From assembly GCF_013122565.1 (NCBI RefSeq), contig NZ_CP053258.1: 64,000 nt of DNA; one strand, given 5' to 3'. Positions 13,304-42,313 of the stretch are shown here, one piece after another. This DNA is from Escherichia coli. Its GTDB lineage: Bacteria; Pseudomonadota; Gammaproteobacteria; Enterobacterales; Enterobacteriaceae. Made by a program: the position numbers and the translations under genes. The stretch's first letter is position 1. Each line of letters begins with the position of its first letter. The notes beneath the pieces were generated by a model. That model was not told where the DNA came from. It was given only the letters and a program-made list of their open reading frames with translations, and searched no databases.

Positions 13304-16099
13304 ATGGAGATAATTATGAGAAACCTCTGTTTCTTACTGACGTTAGTGGCAACTCTGTTGCTCCCCGGGCGGCTGATTGCCGCCGCCTTACCGCAGGATG
13401 AAAAGTTAATTACCGGACAACTGGACAATGGCTTGCGATATATGATTTATCCGCATGCTCAACCAAAGGATCAGGTAAATTTATGGCTGCAAATTCATAC
13501 CGGTTCATTGCAGGAAGAAGACAATGAGCGCGGCGTGGCTCATTTTGTAGAACATATGATGTTTAACGGCACAAAAACATGGCCGGGTAATAAAGTCATC
13601 GAAACATTTGAGTCAATGGGCCTGCGTTTTGGTCGCGATGTTAATGCCTATACCAGCTATGACGAAACGGTGTATCAGGTGAGTTTGCCGACTACGCAGA
13701 AACAAAATCTGCAACAAGTGATGGCAATCTTCAGTGAATGGAGTAATGCCGCAACCTTTGAAAAACTCGAAGTAGACGCTGAACGTGGAGTAATTACTGA
13801 GGAATGGCGTGCCCATCAGGATGCGAAATGGCGCACCTCTCAGGCGCGCCGCCCTTTCCTACTGGCTAATACCCGTAATTTAGACCGTGAACCTATCGGC
13901 CTGATGGATACTGTCGCCACGGTCACACCGGCACAATTGCGCCAATTTTATCAACGCTGGTATCAACCAAATAATATGACCTTTATCGTGGTCGGCGATA
14001 TCGACAGTAAAGAAGCGCTGGCGCTGATAAAGGATAATTTAAGTAAGCTTCCAGCTAACAAAGCAGCTGAAAATCGCGTCTGGCCGACAAAAGCCGAAAA
14101 TCACCTGCGCTTTAATATCATTAATGATAAAGAAAACCGGGTGAACGGCATCGCACTCTATTATCGCCTGCCAATGGTACAAGTGAACGATGAGCAAAGC
14201 TTTATCGAACAAGCTGAATGGAGCATGTTAGTTCAGCTGTTCAATCAACGTCTGCAGGAACGCATACAGTCGGGCGAGTTGAAGACTATTTCTGGCGGCA
14301 CTGCGCGCAGCGTTAGAATTGCACCCGATTATCAGTCGCTGTTTTTCCGTGTAAATGCACGAGACGATAATATGCAGGATGCTGCGAATGCATTAATGGC
14401 AGAGTTGGCAACCATTGATCAGCATGGTTTTTCTGCTGAAGAACTCGATGATGTCAAATCTACCCGCCTCACCTGGCTGAAAAATGCGGTTGATCAGCAA
14501 GCTGAACGTGATTTACGTATGCTGACCAGTCGCCTGGCATCCAGCTCATTAAATAATACGCCGTTCTTGTCGCCGGAAGAGACATATCAACTTTCGAAAC
14601 GTCTGTGGCAGCAAATTACCGTGCAAAGTCTGGCGGAAAAATGGCAGCAGTTAAGAAAGAACCAGGACGCATTTTGGGAGCAAATGGTAAACAATGAGCT
14701 TGCCGCCAAAAAAGCATTGTCTCCTGCGGCTATCCTGGCGCTGGAAAAAGAGTACGCCAACAAAAAGCTGGCGGCTTACATCTTCCCAGGCAGAAATTTA
14801 TCGTTAACAGTAGACGCTGACCCACAGGCGGAAATTAGCAGCAAAGAAACGCTGGCTGAGAATCTGACATCATTAACACTTTCCAATGGTGCCAGGGTTA
14901 TTCTGGCAAAATCCGCGGGTGAAGAGCAAAAGCTACAAATTATTGCCGTATCGAATAAAGGCGATTTAAGTTTCCCTGCGCAGCAAAAATCACTTATCGC
15001 GCTGGCAAATAAAGCAGTTAGCGGAAGCGGCGTTGGCGAACTCTCCTCTTCCAGCCTGAAACGCTGGAGTGCGGAAAACTCGGTAACCATGAGCAGTAAA
15101 GTCAGTGGCATGAATACGTTGCTCTCCGTTAGCGCGCGGACTAATAACCCTGAACCTGGTTTTCAGTTGATTAACCAGCGAATCACCCACAGCACGATTA
15201 ACGACAATATTTGGGCATCGCTACAAAATGCTCAAATTCAGGCGTTGAAAACGCTCGACCAGCGTCCAGCGGAGAAATTCGCCCAGCAGATGTATGAGAC
15301 GCGCTATGCTGATGACCGCACGAAATTACTGCAAGAAAATCAGATTGCACAGTTTACTGCCGCAGATGCGCTGGCTGCCGATCGCCAGTTGTTTTCATCT
15401 CCAGCGGATATCACGTTTGTCATTGTAGGTAATGTCGCAGAAGACAAACTCGTGGCGTTAATTACGCGTTACTTAGGATCAATCAAACACTCTGATTCGC
15501 CATTAGCCGCAGGTAAACCATTAACTCGCGCGATGGACAACGCATCGGTTACTGTAAAAGAACAAAATGAACCTGTGGCACAGGTTTCACAGTGGAAGCG
15601 TTATGATTCCCGGACACCTGTTAATCTGGCGACGCGTATGGCGCTCGATGCTTTTAACGTCGCACTGGCAAAAGATCTACGCGTTAATATTCGTGAACAG
15701 GCATCTGGGGCATACAGCGTTTCTTCTCGCCTCTCGGTTGATCCTCAGGCTAAAGATATCAGTCATTTGCTGGCTTTTACTTGTCAACCAGAACGACATG
15801 ATGAACTGTTAACGTTAGCGAATGAAGTGATGGTTAAGCATTTGACTAAAGGGATCAGTGAGCAAGAACTGAACGAATACCAGCAAAACTTTCAGCGCAG
15901 CCTCGATATCCAACAGCGTAGCGTTCAACAATTAGCGAACACTATTGTAAATAGTCTTATTCAATATGACGATCCTGCAGCATGGACTGAGCAGGAGCAA
16001 TTGTTGAAACAAATGACGGTAGAGAATGTTAACACTGTCGTTAAACAATATCTTTCTCATCCGGTAAATACTTATACCGGAGTATTATTGCCAAAATAA
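13304..16099 (+). CDS. pqqL: Periplasmic M16 zinc metalloprotease PqqL, 931 aa
   Basis: Signal peptide; inverted zinc-binding motif HFVEH (M16 family HxxEH); tandem M16 domains. Confidence 0.92.
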   Translation: MEIIMRNLCFLLTLVATLLLPGRLIAAALPQDEKLITGQLDNGLRYMIYPHAQPKDQVNLWLQIHTGSLQEEDNERGVAHFVEHMMFNGTKTWPGNKVIETFESMGLRFGRDVNAYTSYDETVYQVSLPTTQKQNLQQVMAIFSEWSNAATFEKLEVDAERGVITEEWRAHQDAKWRTSQARRPFLLANTRNLDREPIGLMDTVATVTPAQLRQFYQRWYQPNNMTFIVVGDIDSKEALALIKDNLSKLPANKAAENRVWPTKAENHLRFNIINDKENRVNGIALYYRLPMVQVNDEQSFIEQAEWSMLVQLFNQRLQERIQSGELKTISGGTARSVRIAPDYQSLFFRVNARDDNMQDAANALMAELATIDQHGFSAEELDDVKSTRLTWLKNAVDQQAERDLRMLTSRLASSSLNNTPFLSPEETYQLSKRLWQQITVQSLAEKWQQLRKNQDAFWEQMVNNELAAKKALSPAAILALEKEYANKKLAAYIFPGRNLSLTVDADPQAEISSKETLAENLTSLTLSNGARVILAKSAGEEQKLQIIAVSNKGDLSFPAQQKSLIALANKAVSGSGVGELSSSSLKRWSAENSVTMSSKVSGMNTLLSVSARTNNPEPGFQLINQRITHSTINDNIWASLQNAQIQALKTLDQRPAEKFAQQMYETRYADDRTKLLQENQIAQFTAADALAADRQLFSSPADITFVIVGNVAEDKLVALITRYLGSIKHSDSPLAAGKPLTRAMDNASVTVKEQNEPVAQVSQWKRYDSRTPVNLATRMALDAFNVALAKDLRVNIREQASGAYSVSSRLSVDPQAKDISHLLAFTCQPERHDELLTLANEVMVKHLTKGISEQELNEYQQNFQRSLDIQQRSVQQLANTIVNSLIQYDDPAAWTEQEQLLKQMTVENVNTVVKQYLSHPVNTYTGVLLPK

Positions 16100-16105
16100 T
16101 AACAG

Positions 16106-16135
16106 CCCCGTCAACACATCGTTGGCGGGGATTTT
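16106..16135 (+). terminator. Rho-independent terminator after pqqL
   Basis: ccccgtcaac / acatc / gttggcgggg followed by atttt. Confidence 0.65.
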
Positions 16136-16361
16136 AGCAATATTCGCTATTTTTATGTAATAATTTTATAAATGCGTTCAAAATAATAACCAAGTACTAA
16201 TAGTGATATTTTAAGGTCTGATTTTTACGTGATAATTCAGGAGACACAAAAAGCGCATAAAAATAACAACATAAAACACCTTACCACCACCCAAGAATTC
16301 TCTATTGCATTGTTTTTTAATGGAAAAATATTATTCTAACAATATCTCACGATAAATAACA

Positions 16362-16381
16362 TTAGGATTTTGTTATTTAAA
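16362..16381 (+). promoter_or_regulatory. GAD box (GadX/GadW/GadE-type 20-bp element) of the gadB promoter
   Basis: Exact TTAGGATTTTGTTATTTAAA, about 80 bp upstream of the gadB ATG. Confidence 0.8.
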
Positions 16382-16460
16382 CCCGAGTCCTTTGCACTTG
16401 CTTACTTTATCGATAAATCCTACTTTTTTAATGCGATCCAATCATTTTAAGGAGTTTAAA

Positions 16461-17861
16461 ATGGATAAGAAGCAAGTAACGGATTTAAGGTCGGAACTAC
16501 TCGATTCACGTTTTGGTGCGAAGTCTATTTCCACTATCGCAGAATCAAAACGTTTTCCGCTGCACGAAATGCGCGACGATGTCGCATTTCAGATTATCAA
16601 TGACGAATTATATCTTGATGGCAACGCTCGTCAGAACCTGGCCACTTTCTGCCAGACCTGGGACGACGAAAATGTCCACAAGTTGATGGATTTATCCATT
16701 AACAAAAACTGGATCGACAAAGAAGAATATCCGCAATCTGCAGCCATCGACCTGCGTTGCGTAAACATGGTTGCCGATCTGTGGCATGCGCCTGCGCCGA
16801 AAAATGGTCAGGCCGTTGGCACCAACACCATTGGTTCTTCCGAGGCCTGTATGCTCGGCGGGATGGCGATGAAATGGCGTTGGCGCAAGCGTATGGAAGC
16901 TGCAGGCAAACCAACGGATAAACCAAACCTGGTGTGCGGTCCGGTGCAAATCTGCTGGCATAAATTCGCCCGCTACTGGGATGTGGAGCTGCGTGAGATC
17001 CCTATGCGCCCCGGTCAGTTGTTTATGGACCCGAAACGCATGATTGAAGCCTGCGACGAAAACACCATCGGCGTGGTGCCGACTTTCGGCGTGACCTACA
17101 CCGGTAACTATGAGTTCCCGCAACCGCTGCACGATGCGCTGGATAAATTCCAGGCCGACACCGGTATCGACATCGACATGCACATCGACGCCGCCAGCGG
17201 TGGCTTTCTGGCACCGTTCGTCGCCCCGGATATCGTCTGGGACTTCCGCCTGCCGCGGGTGAAATCGATCAGTGCTTCAGGCCACAAATTCGGTCTGGCT
17301 CCGCTGGGCTGCGGCTGGGTTATCTGGCGTGACGAAGAAGCACTGCCGCAGGAACTGGTGTTCAACGTTGACTACCTGGGTGGTCAGATTGGTACTTTCG
17401 CCATCAACTTCTCCCGCCCGGCAGGTCAGGTAATTGCACAGTACTATGAATTCCTGCGCCTCGGTCGTGAAGGCTATACCAAAGTACAGAACGCCTCTTA
17501 CCAGGTTGCCGCTTATCTGGCGGATGAAATCGCCAAACTGGGGCCGTATGAGTTCATCTGTACGGGTCGCCCGGACGAAGGCATCCCGGCGGTTTGCTTC
17601 AAACTGAAAGATGGTGAAGATCCGGGATACACCCTGTACGACCTCTCTGAACGTCTGCGTCTGCGCGGCTGGCAGGTTCCGGCCTTCACTCTCGGCGGTG
17701 AAGCCACCGACATCGTGGTGATGCGCATTATGTGTCGTCGCGGCTTCGAAATGGACTTTGCTGAACTGTTGCTGGAAGACTACAAAGCCTCCCTGAAATA
17801 TCTCAGCGATCACCCGAAACTGCAGGGTATTGCCCATCAGAACAGCTTTAAACATACCTGA
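16461..17861 (+). CDS. gadB: Glutamate decarboxylase beta, 466 aa
   Basis: ATG at 16461 with aaggag RBS (track ORF extends 23 codons upstream); [19 protein letters not shown]...; PLP-binding region [10 protein letters not shown]. Confidence 0.97.
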
Positions 17862-17881
17862 TAACGTTTAACGGTAACGGT

Positions 17882-17907
17882 GTCCCGAAACGAACCCGTT
17901 TCGGGAC
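17882..17907 (+). other. 11-bp perfect inverted repeat in the gadB-gadC intergenic region
   Basis: gtcccgaaacg / aacc / cgtttcgggac; no strong T tract. Confidence 0.6.
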
Positions 17908-18016
17908 AATTTCCAAAGTCTGTTCACTGGCATTAGCAACGGAAAATATTGTTCTGAATACGCTTCAGAACAAAACAGGTGCGGTTCCGACAGGAATACC
18001 GTTTTAGGGGGATAAT

Positions 18017-19552
18017 ATGGCTACATCAGTACAGACAGGTAAAGCTAAGCAGCTCACATTACTCGGATTCTTTGCCATAACGGCATCGATGGTAATGGCT
18101 GTTTATGAATACCCTACCTTCGCAACATCGGGCTTTTCATTAGTCTTCTTCCTGCTATTAGGCGGGATTTTATGGTTTATTCCCGTGGGACTTTGTGCTG
18201 CGGAAATGGCCACCGTCGACGGCTGGGAAGAAGGTGGTGTCTTCGCCTGGGTATCAAATACTCTGGGGCCGAGATGGGGATTTGCAGCGATCTCATTTGG
18301 CTATCTGCAAATCGCCATTGGTTTTATTCCGATGCTCTATTTCGTGTTAGGGGCACTCTCCTACATCCTGAAATGGCCAGCGCTGAATGAAGACCCCATT
18401 ACCAAAACTATTGCAGCACTCATCATTCTTTGGGCGCTGGCATTAACGCAGTTTGGTGGCACGAAATACACGGCGCGAATTGCTAAAGTTGGCTTCTTCG
18501 CCGGTATCCTGTTACCTGCATTTATTTTGATCGCATTAGCCGCTATTTATCTGCACTCCGGTGCCCCCGTTGCTATCGAAATGGATGCGAAGACCTTCTT
18601 CCCTGACTTCTCTAAAGTGGGCACCCTGGTTGTATTTGTTGCCTTCATTTTGAGTTATATGGGCGTTGAAGCTTCCGCAACCCACGTCAATGAAATGAGC
18701 AATCCAGGGCGCGACTATCCACTGGCTATGTTACTGCTGATGGTGGCGGCAATCTGCTTAAGCTCTGTTGGCGGTTTGTCTATTGCGATGGTCATTCCGG
18801 GTAATGAAATCAACCTCTCCGCAGGTGTAATGCAAACCTTTACTGTTCTGATGTCCCATGTGGCACCGGAAATTGAGTGGACGGTTCGCGTAATCTCCGC
18901 ACTGCTGTTGCTGGGTGTTCTGGCGGAAATCGCCTCCTGGATTGTTGGTCCTTCTCGCGGGATGTATGTCACAGCGCAGAAAAACCTGCTGCCAGCAGCA
19001 TTCGCTAAAATGAACAAAAATGGCGTACCGGTAACGCTGGTCATTTCGCAGCTGGTGATTACTTCTATCGCGTTGATCATCCTCACCAATACCGGTGGCG
19101 GTAACAACATGTCCTTCCTGATCGCACTGGCGCTGACGGTGGTGATTTATCTGTGTGCTTATTTCATGCTGTTTATTGGCTACATTGTGTTGGTTCTTAA
19201 ACATCCTGACTTAAAACGCACATTTAATATCCCTGGTGGTAAAGGGGTGAAACTGGTCGTGGCTATTGTCGGTCTGCTGACTTCAATTATGGCGTTTATT
19301 GTTTCCTTCCTGCCGCCGGATAACATCCAGGGTGACTCTACTGATATGTATGTTGAATTACTGGTCGTTAGTTTCCTGGTGGTACTTGCCCTGCCCTTTA
19401 TTCTCTATGCTGTTCATGATCGTAAAGGCAAAGGGAATACCGGCGTTACTCTGGAGCCAATCAACAGTCAGAACGCACCAAAAGGTCACTTCTTCCTGCA
19501 CCCGCGTGCACGTTCACCACACTATATTGTGATGAATGACAAGAAACACTAA
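18017..19552 (+). CDS. gadC: Glutamate:GABA antiporter, 511 aa
   Basis: Multi-pass APC-family permease immediately downstream of gadB. Confidence 0.96.
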
Positions 19553-19577
19553 CCATGTCTGAATGGTTATAAGATAA

Positions 19578-19606
19578 GGGAGCGATAATTCATCGCTCCC
19601 TTTTTC
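19578..19606 (+). terminator. Rho-independent terminator after gadC
   Basis: gggagcgat / aattc / atcgctccc followed by ttttt. Confidence 0.8.
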
Positions 19607-19682
19607 GTGCTTGCTGTCGTATTGACTTAACCGGGATAAGTACGAGAATGAGCGCACATCTGTTTACCGGAAACCAGCACAT

Positions 19683-21002
19683 ATGGATATCTGCTCCCGA
19701 AACGAGAAATTAGCGATTAGAAGACCAGCGATACTGGTTGCACTGGCACTTTTACTGTGTAGTTGTAAAAGCACGCCTCCAGAGTCCATGGTGACACCAC
19801 CAGCGGGTTCAAAGCCACCAGCCACGACGCAACAATCGTCACAACCGATGCGTGGCATCTGGCTGGCCACGGTGTCTCGCCTCGACTGGCCACCGGTTTC
19901 CTCGGTTAACATTAGTAACCCCACCAGCCGGGCCCGTGTACAACAACAGGCGATGATCGACAAACTAGATCATCTGCAACGTCTCGGCATAAACACGGTC
20001 TTTTTCCAGGTCAAGCCAGACGGTACCGCCCTGTGGCCATCGAAAATTTTGCCGTGGTCCGATCTTATGACCGGTAAGATTGGTGAAAATCCGGGTTACG
20101 ATCCGCTGCAATTCATGCTCGACGAAGCCCACAAGCGTGGGATGAAAGTACACGCCTGGTTTAACCCCTATCGCGTATCGGTTAATACGAAGCCCGGTAC
20201 TATCAGGGAACTGAATAGCACCCTGTCTCAACAACCGGCGAGCGTCTATGTGCAACACCGCGACTGGATCAGAACGTCCGGCGATCGCTTTGTCCTCGAC
20301 CCGGGCATACCTGAGGTTCAGGACTGGATCACGTCAATAGTCGCAGAAGTGGTTTCCCGCTATCCGGTAGATGGCGTGCAGTTTGACGACTATTTCTATA
20401 CTGAGTCACCGGGTTCACGGCTAAATGATAACGAAACGTACCGCAAATACGGAGGCGCATTTGCGTCGAAAGCAGACTGGCGGCGCAACAATACTCAGCA
20501 GTTAATTGCAAAAGTATCGCACACCATTAAAAGCATTAAGCCGGGAGTCGAATTTGGCGTTAGCCCGGCAGGCGTGTGGCGTAACCGATCACACGATCCG
20601 CTCGGTTCCGATACCCGAGGCGCGGCAGCCTATGACGAATCCTACGCTGACACCCGTCGATGGGTGGAACAAGGATTGCTGGATTACATTGCTCCCCAAA
20701 TTTACTGGCCGTTCTCACGGAGTGCCGCGCGTTATGACGTGTTGGCAAAATGGTGGGCGGATGTCGTTAAACCGACCAGGACCCGCCTGTATATCGGTAT
20801 CGCCTTCTATAAAGTGGGTGAACCTTCAAAGATAGAGCCAGACTGGATGATTAACGGCGGCGTACCGGAACTGAAAAAGCAGCTCGATCTTAACGATGCG
20901 GTACCAGAAATTAGCGGCACAATCTTGTTCCGTGAGGACTATCTGAATAAACCGCAGACTCAACAAGCGGTCAGCTATCTGCAAAGTCGTTGGGGCAGTT
21001 AA
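19683..21002 (+). CDS. yddW: Lipoprotein, glycoside-hydrolase-like YddW, 439 aa
   Basis: Lipobox-like LLLCSC after signal peptide; length and position match YddW. Confidence 0.85.
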   Translation: MDICSRNEKLAIRRPAILVALALLLCSCKSTPPESMVTPPAGSKPPATTQQSSQPMRGIWLATVSRLDWPPVSSVNISNPTSRARVQQQAMIDKLDHLQRLGINTVFFQVKPDGTALWPSKILPWSDLMTGKIGENPGYDPLQFMLDEAHKRGMKVHAWFNPYRVSVNTKPGTIRELNSTLSQQPASVYVQHRDWIRTSGDRFVLDPGIPEVQDWITSIVAEVVSRYPVDGVQFDDYFYTESPGSRLNDNETYRKYGGAFASKADWRRNNTQQLIAKVSHTIKSIKPGVEFGVSPAGVWRNRSHDPLGSDTRGAAAYDESYADTRRWVEQGLLDYIAPQIYWPFSRSAARYDVLAKWWADVVKPTRTRLYIGIAFYKVGEPSKIEPDWMINGGVPELKKQLDLNDAVPEISGTILFREDYLNKPQTQQAVSYLQSRWGS

Positions 21003-32695: not shown

Positions 32696-32726
32696 TTCAT
32701 AACCATCAGTCCTCAATGACGATTAA

Positions 32727-32760
32727 ACACCATTGCCTGCGCAATGGTGTTTTTGTTTTT
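32727..32760 (+). terminator. Strong rho-independent terminator after bdm-sra
   Basis: 10-bp perfect stem acaccattgc / ctgc / gcaatggtgt followed by ttttgttttt. Confidence 0.85.
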
Positions 32761-41172: not shown

Positions 41173-42054
41173 ATGACACGACAAAAAGCAACGCTCATAG
41201 GGCTAATAGCGATCGTCCTGTGGAGCACGATGGTAGGATTGATTCGCGGTGTCAGTGAGGGGCTCGGCCCGGTCGGCGGTGCAGCTGCTATCTATTCATT
41301 AAGCGGGCTGCTGTTAATCTTCACAGTTGGATTTCCGCGTATTCGGCAAATCCCGAAAGGCTATTTGCTCGCCGGGAGTCTGTTATTCGTCAGCTATGAA
41401 ATCTGTCTGGCGCTTTCATTAGGGTATGCGGCGACCCGTCATCAGGCGATTGAAGTGGGTATGGTGAACTATCTATGGCCCAGCCTGACAATTCTCTTTG
41501 CCATTCTGTTTAATGGTCAGAAAACCAACTGGCTGATTGTACCAGGATTATTATTAGCCCTCGTCGGCGTCTGCTGGGTGCTAGGCGGTGACAATGGGTT
41601 ACATTATGATGAAATCATCAATAATATCACCACCAGTCCATTGAGTTATTTCCTGGCGTTTATTGGTGCGTTTATCTGGGCAGCCTATTGCACAGTAACG
41701 AATAAATACGCACGCGGATTTAATGGAATTACCGTTTTTGTCCTGCTAACGGGAGCAAGTCTGTGGGTTTACTATTTTCTCACGCCACAACCAGAAATGG
41801 TATTTAGCACGCCCGTCATGATTAAACTCATCTCTGCGGCATTTACCTTAGGATTTGCTTATGCTGCATGGAATGTCGGTATATTGCATGGCAACGTCAC
41901 TATTATGGCGGTAGGTTCGTATTTTACGCCCGTACTTTCCTCAGCGCTTGCAGCCGTGCTGCTCAGCGCCCCGCTGTCGTTCTCGTTCTGGCAAGGCGCG
42001 CTAATGGTCTGCGGCGGTTCCCTGCTCTGCTGGCTGGCGACACGTCGTGGTTAA
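41173..42054 (+). CDS. yddG: Aromatic amino acid exporter (DMT family), 293 aa
   Basis: Ten-helix EamA-like membrane protein, full length. Confidence 0.93.
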   Translation: MTRQKATLIGLIAIVLWSTMVGLIRGVSEGLGPVGGAAAIYSLSGLLLIFTVGFPRIRQIPKGYLLAGSLLFVSYEICLALSLGYAATRHQAIEVGMVNYLWPSLTILFAILFNGQKTNWLIVPGLLLALVGVCWVLGGDNGLHYDEIINNITTSPLSYFLAFIGAFIWAAYCTVTNKYARGFNGITVFVLLTGASLWVYYFLTPQPEMVFSTPVMIKLISAAFTLGFAYAAWNVGILHGNVTIMAVGSYFTPVLSSALAAVLLSAPLSFSFWQGALMVCGGSLLCWLATRRG

Positions 42055-42058
42055 AATA

Positions 42059-42083
42059 ACTGCCGGGTCTACGGCCCGGCAGT
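42059..42083 (+). terminator. Hairpin after yddG
   Basis: ctgccggg / loop / cccggcag; no strong T tract. Confidence 0.45.
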
Positions 42084-42313
42084 TAATCAGATAAATTCCG
42101 ACAATATTAAAAAAATAAACTTCAAATACCAGTAATTCACCTTATATCTCATTTCGACTTCGATCACATATCGATAAATAATATTATTTCATCTATTTTT
42201 CTCATTGTTTTTAATCACCGTTCTATTTTAAAAACAGTATGTCATTTATAAATGACGCCGTTTAAAATTCGTTTAGAAAATACGTTTAACGATAATTAAA
42301 AGGATTCTGTTAA

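Follow-up and report, generated by a model that had tools for sequence, protein, structure and literature searches.

Glutamate-dependent acid resistance needs an abundant cytosolic decarboxylase and far less of a membrane antiporter, and both are made from one operon, gadB-gadC. The question raised by this locus is whether a hairpin lying in the spacer between the two cistrons has a part in giving more message for the enzyme than for the transporter, and if so, by what means. The window analysed here is a stretch of 64,000 nt of Escherichia coli DNA, which runs in the reverse orientation with respect to K-12 and whose gadB-gadC spacer, 155 nt long, does not differ from that of MG1655 (K-12). 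An earlier note, made from the sequence alone, had pointed to an inverted repeat in this spacer and regarded it as a stabiliser or processing site of the gadBC mRNA rather than as a full terminator. Our preferred reading, which we hold with about even confidence, is that the sense gadBC transcript contains an intercistronic stem-loop which sets the 3' end of a gadB-only mRNA and shields that end. The features of the region are collected in Table 1.

Table 1. Features of the gadB-gadC region, in coordinates of the window
Feature	Coordinates	Strand	Evidence
pqqL	13304-16099		
gadB, glutamate decarboxylase, upstream cistron	16461-17861	+	TIGR01788 score 692.7
gadB stop codon TGA	17859-17861		
RNA stem-loop in the gadBC mRNA, 12 bp	17881-17908	+	sequence, folds, RNAalifold
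5' arm GTCCCGAAACG	17882-17892	+	
loop AACC	17893-17896	+	
3' arm CGTTTCGGGAC	17897-17907	+	
tail AUUUCCA, with short U run at 17910-17912	17909-17915	+	Term-seq RNA 3' end at 17912
gadC, glutamate/GABA antiporter, downstream cistron	18017-19552	+	TIGR00910 score 1026
canonical intrinsic terminator of the operon, GGGAGCGATAATTCATCGCTCCC then TTTTTC	19578-19606	+	score +19.0; Term-seq 3' end at 19606
digH/yddW	19683-21002		

The core of the element is a perfect 11-bp inverted repeat (17882-17907), with sequence and loop exactly as the earlier note described them, and an additional U17881-A17908 pair extends the stem to 12 bp. As the note also stated, 20 nt (17862-17881) intervene between the gadB stop codon and the repeat, which places the stem outside the footprint of a ribosome terminating at that codon. 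The hairpin proved to be as stable as had been supposed: its folding energy is -18.3 kcal/mol for the 26-nt repeat, -19.9 kcal/mol for 28 nt and -21.1 kcal/mol in a 45-nt context, its z-score is about -4.5 (-4.46), and none of 200 shuffled sequences folds equally well. Folding of the whole 155-nt spacer also yields the hairpin, both in the centroid structure and in the minimum free energy (MFE) structure. The 64-kb window has six distinct sites with a perfect inverted repeat (arms of 11 bp or more, loops of 3-8 nt), the gadC terminator among them, against a chance expectation of about 0.07 per window (estimated from dinucleotide shuffles), hence the hairpin is more than a product of chance. 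Two other perfect hairpins of the window, which have arms of 11 bp or more and lack a U tract, are located directly after the stop codon of the ORF 41173-42054 (hairpin at 42057-42085) and between the same-strand ORFs 43578-44843 and 44906-46159 (an AT-rich hairpin at 44850-44879), and may represent further U-less stem-loops at or between cistrons.

The only exact copies of the arms within the window are the two arms themselves, and the spacer is present in a single copy in 5405 of 5426 complete E. coli genomes. Membership in the REP/BIME or another repeat family was therefore ruled out, the element being single-copy per genome (in these 5405 genomes) and unrelated in sequence. A search of positions 16000-20000 with Rfam covariance models (E <= 10) gave no match at the hairpin. 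The single-sequence MFE fold also pairs the tail AUUUCC with the Shine-Dalgarno sequence of gadC; this pairing is absent from the consensus fold and was dropped. The spacer contains a second perfect hairpin of 10 bp (17949-17973, TTGTTCTGAA-TACGC-TTCAGAACAA), which on the minus strand resembles a terminator, being followed there by TATTTTCC. We do not regard it as part of the element, because it acquires uncompensated C.A mismatches in the loci L002 and L003 and is replaced by a long imperfect helix in the RNAalifold prediction.

An RNA 3' end has been mapped at this hairpin in vivo. In supplementary file 1 of the Term-seq study by Adams 2021 (eLife, PMC7815308), the sheet for M63 glucose medium at OD 0.4 lists a curated 3' end at NC_000913.3 1570594(-), with 33,816.8 average reads, the class 'orphan' and the flanking sequence TAACGTTTAACGGTAACGGTGTCCCGAAACGAACCCGTTTCGGGACAATTT / CCAAAGTCTG. 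Mapped via the identical K-12 spacer, it corresponds to position 17912 of the window, at the final U of AAUUU and 4-5 nt beyond the stem, and the transcript ends in ...GGGACAAUUU. The class 'orphan' results solely from its distance of 51 nt to the gadB stop codon, one base past the 50-bp limit of the 'primary' class (PMC7815308). The 3' end at the gadC terminator (K-12 1568900, window 19606) has 70,553 reads in the same sheet (PMC7815308), a comparison to be read in the light of the fact that Term-seq read counts are not strictly quantitative. Both gad 3' ends are curated only in M63 glucose and remain uncalled in the two LB conditions, probably owing to low expression there. Neither gadB nor gadC has an entry in the SMRT-Cappable-seq supplements, and our full-text literature searches found no paper that discusses the gadB-gadC hairpin; the site is published only as an unannotated row of a supplementary table, while the kind of element to which it belongs is already well known. 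As a positive control for the coordinate mapping, another hairpin of the window (32725-32752, AAACACCATTGC-CTGC-GCAATGGTGTTT, then the T-run TTGTTTTT) matches the flank of a strong Term-seq 3' end, K-12 1555766(-), with 143,837 reads. The same tables contain an 'orphan' 3' end at K-12 3656317-3656318 (minus strand), between hdeA and hdeB and 25 nt upstream of hdeB; this site, outside the window, provides a further acid-resistance operon with a 3' end between its cistrons.

The expression data reported by Seo 2015 (Nat Commun, PMC4918353, Supplementary Data 1; RNA-seq, FPKM at pH 5.5) reveal that most of the gadC message is nevertheless transcribed through the hairpin. Upon deletion of gadE the FPKM values fall from 2532.55 to 29.2 for gadB, from 1189 to 20.6 for gadC and from 2266.61 to 26.1 for gadA (PMC4918353), so gadB and gadC each decrease more than 50-fold (gadC 58-fold). 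The dependence of gadC on the GadE-activated promoter upstream of gadB implies that one promoter serves both genes and that most gadC message reads through the hairpin. In the wild type the gadB:gadC ratio is 2.1:1, i.e. gadC reaches 47% of gadB, with the reservation that gadA and gadB are about 98% identical and reads shared between them may inflate or blur the gadB value. Thus, the result by which the earlier note would have been refuted, uniform coverage with no 3' end at this position, does not apply: a 3' end is mapped 5 nt downstream of the stem, and the transcript level is not uniform along the operon. Its judgement that the hairpin is not a full terminator also holds, given the 58-fold fall of gadC in the gadE deletion, the main 3' end of the operon at the gadC terminator and the low terminator score described below.

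A twofold downstream drop is also what a terminator of about 50% efficiency would produce, and a possible, if doubtful, explanation is that the hairpin together with AAUUU constitutes a leaky intrinsic (Rho-independent) attenuator, which stops a fraction of the polymerases and thereby sets the ratio, the hairpin protecting the released RNA as well. The stem itself would suit this role: it is stable and G+C-rich (12 bp, -19.9 kcal/mol), and its energy is within the range of real terminators. The 3' end falls on the last U of UUU, at a distance from the stem that resembles the corresponding 6 nt at the gadC terminator in these Term-seq data, and Dar & Sorek (PMC6061677) remark that stem-loops poor in U may act as intrinsic terminators of low efficiency. 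The sequence that follows the stem fits far less well. In the tail AAUUUCCAAAG two A's adjoin the stem and only three U's follow, in place of a U tract of 7-8 nt, so that the earlier note was in essence correct to state that a U tract is missing. Intrinsic terminators usually release the RNA 7-9 nt from the stem, and the mapped end is closer than that, which suggests some trimming. A simple scan for the terminator consensus does not call the hairpin, and a d'Aubenton-Carafa-type score (after d'Aubenton Carafa 1990) is about -21 to -33, far below the threshold, against +19 for the gadC terminator; the T-tract scores are 0.9-1.5 and 4.0, respectively. Nor does the hairpin block most downstream transcription, as a canonical terminator would, since gadC retains nearly half the level of gadB and the larger 3' end is at the gadC terminator.

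Termination by Rho has no obvious site in the spacer either. The C/G ratio is about 1.1 in the 60 nt that follow the hairpin and 0.8 over the spacer; the downstream sequence is thus not C-rich or G-poor, and a Rho loading site is not obvious. No coordinate match was found among the Rho regions defined with bicyclomycin, in data from exponential growth in LB, where gad expression is probably low.

Comparison of related spacers reveals what has been maintained at this site. We compared five distinct Escherichia spacers: the one shared by the window and K-12, those of Escherichia sp. E1V33, strain E69 (identical to that of the metagenome locus L083) and E. albertii, and that of the metagenome locus L082; a scan of metagenomes for spacers unlike that of K-12 returned only two loci. 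In E1V33 only the loop is changed. In E69 and L082, A-to-G and C-to-U changes convert pairs of the stem to G.U wobbles in the sense RNA, which on the other strand are C.A mismatches; wobbles that pair only on the mRNA strand are found in L002, L082 and L003. E. albertii has accumulated about nine substitutions in the stem and a longer loop (about 6-7 nt instead of 4), and its hairpin still folds with -20.6 kcal/mol. It has three compensatory pair changes (U-A to C-G once and A-U to G-C twice), all of which come from this single lineage. Across the five spacers 96.7% of the stem cells are paired, and RNAalifold independently predicts the hairpin helix, the only one with compensatory changes.

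Tests based on counts of pairs and on energy differ in outcome. In a pair-count shuffle test, which has little power with five sequences, 70 of 500 shuffles reach the observed value, and a pair-count simulation of mutations with a transition bias was not significant (P = 0.22), because wobbles are cheap. The energy-based simulation, which took the place of the shuffle test, is informative: when nine random substitutions were introduced into the stem, an energy of -20.6 kcal/mol or better was kept in only 0.005-0.03% of the trials, with substitutions drawn either uniformly or with the observed transition/transversion mix. Meanwhile the U run decays across the lineages, from AAUUUCC through AAAUUCC (E69-like) to AAACUCC (E. 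albertii). That the stem is kept by compensatory change while the U run is lost indicates that what is selected for is the stem, as formed by the mRNA strand, rather than an entire terminator; this also speaks against the leaky attenuator. Among 5406 E. coli records, 1812 show differences in the 55-nt segment that surrounds the hairpin. Six variants were taken at regular intervals from the ranked list, and in each of them the changes are confined to the loop or the innermost pair (AACC to AAGC, or G17892A together with A17893C, which gives a 6-nt loop). A block of 33 nt directly 3' of the hairpin (17913-17945, CCAAAGTCTGTTCACTGGCATTAGCAA...) is invariant in all five Escherichia spacers, unlike the adjoining hairpin, with its approximately ten changes in E. 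albertii. This block could be a site for a nuclease, an sRNA or a protein, or a part of the translational control of gadC.

The same comparison bears on the idea that the repeat acts as a DNA palindrome bound by a dimeric regulator, or that its function resides on the antisense strand. Its perfect dyad symmetry with a 4-bp spacer does look like an operator. In E. albertii, however, the half-sites change symmetrically and the distance between them grows, thus the pairing of the RNA is preserved and neither the recognition sequence nor the half-site spacing is; the G.U wobbles can be accommodated in the sense RNA alone, on the minus strand no U run follows the stem, and the RNA 3' end mapped at the site belongs to the sense strand. 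We consider such a function very improbable.

In order to see how far the arrangement extends beyond Escherichia, we carried out a scan anchored on GadB with one genome per species. Only in Escherichia and in Mesopusillimonas faecipullorum (71% GadC identity) is gadB followed by a gadC of the E. coli type. In Hafnia, Yersinia, Serratia and Edwardsiella (loci L006-L039 and L078) GadB is 80-89% identical to its E. coli counterpart, whereas the next antiporter is only about 32% identical to E. coli GadC. The gadB-gadC operon appears to have a mosaic character, its two genes having evolved separately. Strong hairpins without a U tract are present after gadB in unrelated spacers of Hafnia paralvei, Yersinia ruckeri, Lamprocystis, the locus L034 and Mesopusillimonas (z-scores from -3 to -8). 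Most Yersinia species and all short spacers showed no hairpin after gadB, which does not support a universal gadB-downstream hairpin; the arrangement is recurrent, not universal, in gadB-antiporter operons. Copies of the gadA type (L004, L008 and L040) have their own, unrelated hairpins with weak U runs, e.g. CCTGCATGC-CAGGA-GCATGCAGG followed by TTTAATG, in parallel to the leaky arrangement at gadB.

The history of the operon offers another explanation, namely that the hairpin is the vestigial terminator of a once monocistronic gadB, left behind after the E. coli-type gadC joined it, in which case the 3' end would be incidental and without an adaptive role in stoichiometry. The gadB-gadC junction is indeed specific to Escherichia within the Enterobacterales sampled, the U run erodes progressively across the lineages, and the gadA and gadB loci cease to be homologous no more than a few bases past the stop codon (TGATAAC...). 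Against this, the compensatory changes and the energy simulation (P about 10^-4) show ongoing selection for the stem, and the polymorphism sampled in E. coli avoids it. Moreover, Hafnia, Y. ruckeri, Lamprocystis and Mesopusillimonas possess strong U-less hairpins of their own after gadB. We therefore regard a mere relic as unlikely.

We return to the preferred reading, in which the stem-loop fixes where a gadB-only mRNA ends and shields that 3' end. Transcription starts upstream of gadB, at the promoter that depends on GadE, and the majority of polymerases pass the hairpin into gadC. Some transcripts would then end up without their gadC part, because an endonuclease cuts in the A/U-rich spacer or because transcription stops prematurely at a point further downstream, and the shortened molecules would be trimmed in the 3'-to-5' direction, for which E. 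coli typically employs PNPase and RNase II. These exonucleases would be halted at the G+C-rich base of the stem, leaving ...GGGACAAUUU-3', and the gadB message could thus outlast the gadC segment, giving the approximately twofold excess of gadB mRNA at steady state. That the 3' end arises mainly by trimming or processing back to the hairpin could go either way in our estimate. The trimming and the longer life of the gadB mRNA are what we infer; the hairpin, its 3' end in vivo, the read-through to gadC, the ratio of roughly 2:1 and the selection for the stem in the mRNA strand are observed. Exonuclease trimming and low-efficiency intrinsic termination at AAUUU are both possible and can coexist. 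Trimming or processing back to the hairpin is the route that the earlier note preferred.

One could go further and propose that the hairpin is a regulated control point for the GadB:GadC stoichiometry, a former terminator co-opted after the E. coli-type gadC joined gadB. A 3'-end-binding protein such as ProQ, or nuclease activity dependent on pH or growth phase, might then alter the amount of the gadB-only message. The hints in this direction are the strong selection on the stem and the invariant block next to it, and we find a regulated switch improbable. The hairpin offers a simple structural explanation for the approximately twofold excess of gadB mRNA, and an ordinary way for an operon to make more message for an enzyme than for a transporter. 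It also annotates an RNA 3' end that the published map lists only as "orphan", and may be of use in operon annotation and in the engineering of GABA-producing strains. The understanding of the acid resistance system or of bacterial mRNA ends is unchanged by it.

The element can be compared with several known systems, one of them being the canonical intrinsic terminator, such as that of its own operon. In both, a stem rich in G+C carries a short loop and is followed within a few nt by an RNA 3' end. Unlike the gadC terminator, the gadB hairpin has AAUUUCC where a U tract of 7-8 nt would be expected, has a negative terminator score and is read through.

Intercistronic stabilising hairpins are known from the REP elements between malE and malF of E. 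coli and from the hairpins of the pufBA genes of Rhodobacter capsulatus, where they give unequal expression within an operon. In analogy to these, the gadB hairpin lies between the gene of an abundant upstream product and that of a scarcer membrane component, and would protect the upstream mRNA, so that it exceeds the downstream mRNA in amount. Unlike the malE-malF element it is no REP/BIME sequence and occurs once per genome, and its stabilising effect is a presumed one.

Within the acid fitness island, an RNase III-dependent intercistronic cleavage of the gadX-gadW transcript that involves GadY is cited in PMC3937726. The gadB-gadC hairpin would likewise be the site of a post-transcriptional event between cistrons of the gad regulon. 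The gadX-gadW case, however, depends on an antisense sRNA and a long duplex, whereas the gadB hairpin is an intramolecular stem of 12 bp, too short for a typical RNase III substrate by the length generally accepted for this enzyme, and on this ground an RNase III site was ruled out. We know of no antisense partner of the gadB-gadC hairpin.

The preferred reading agrees with the class of elements described by Dar & Sorek 2018 (NAR, PMC6061677), in which stable, U-poor stem-loops of E. coli obstruct PNPase and RNase II and thereby determine where steady-state 3' ends lie. Its members are found mainly at the ends of genes or operons with Rho-terminated transcripts, and the sequence downstream of them is enriched in C over G (PMC6061677). 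The gadB hairpin differs from them in being placed inside an operon and read through into gadC, and in a downstream sequence that is not C-rich, and its relation to the exonucleases is drawn by analogy. It shares with this class (PMC6061677) a stable stem-loop of terminator-like energy, little uridine after the stem and a precise 3' end, at 17912, immediately downstream.
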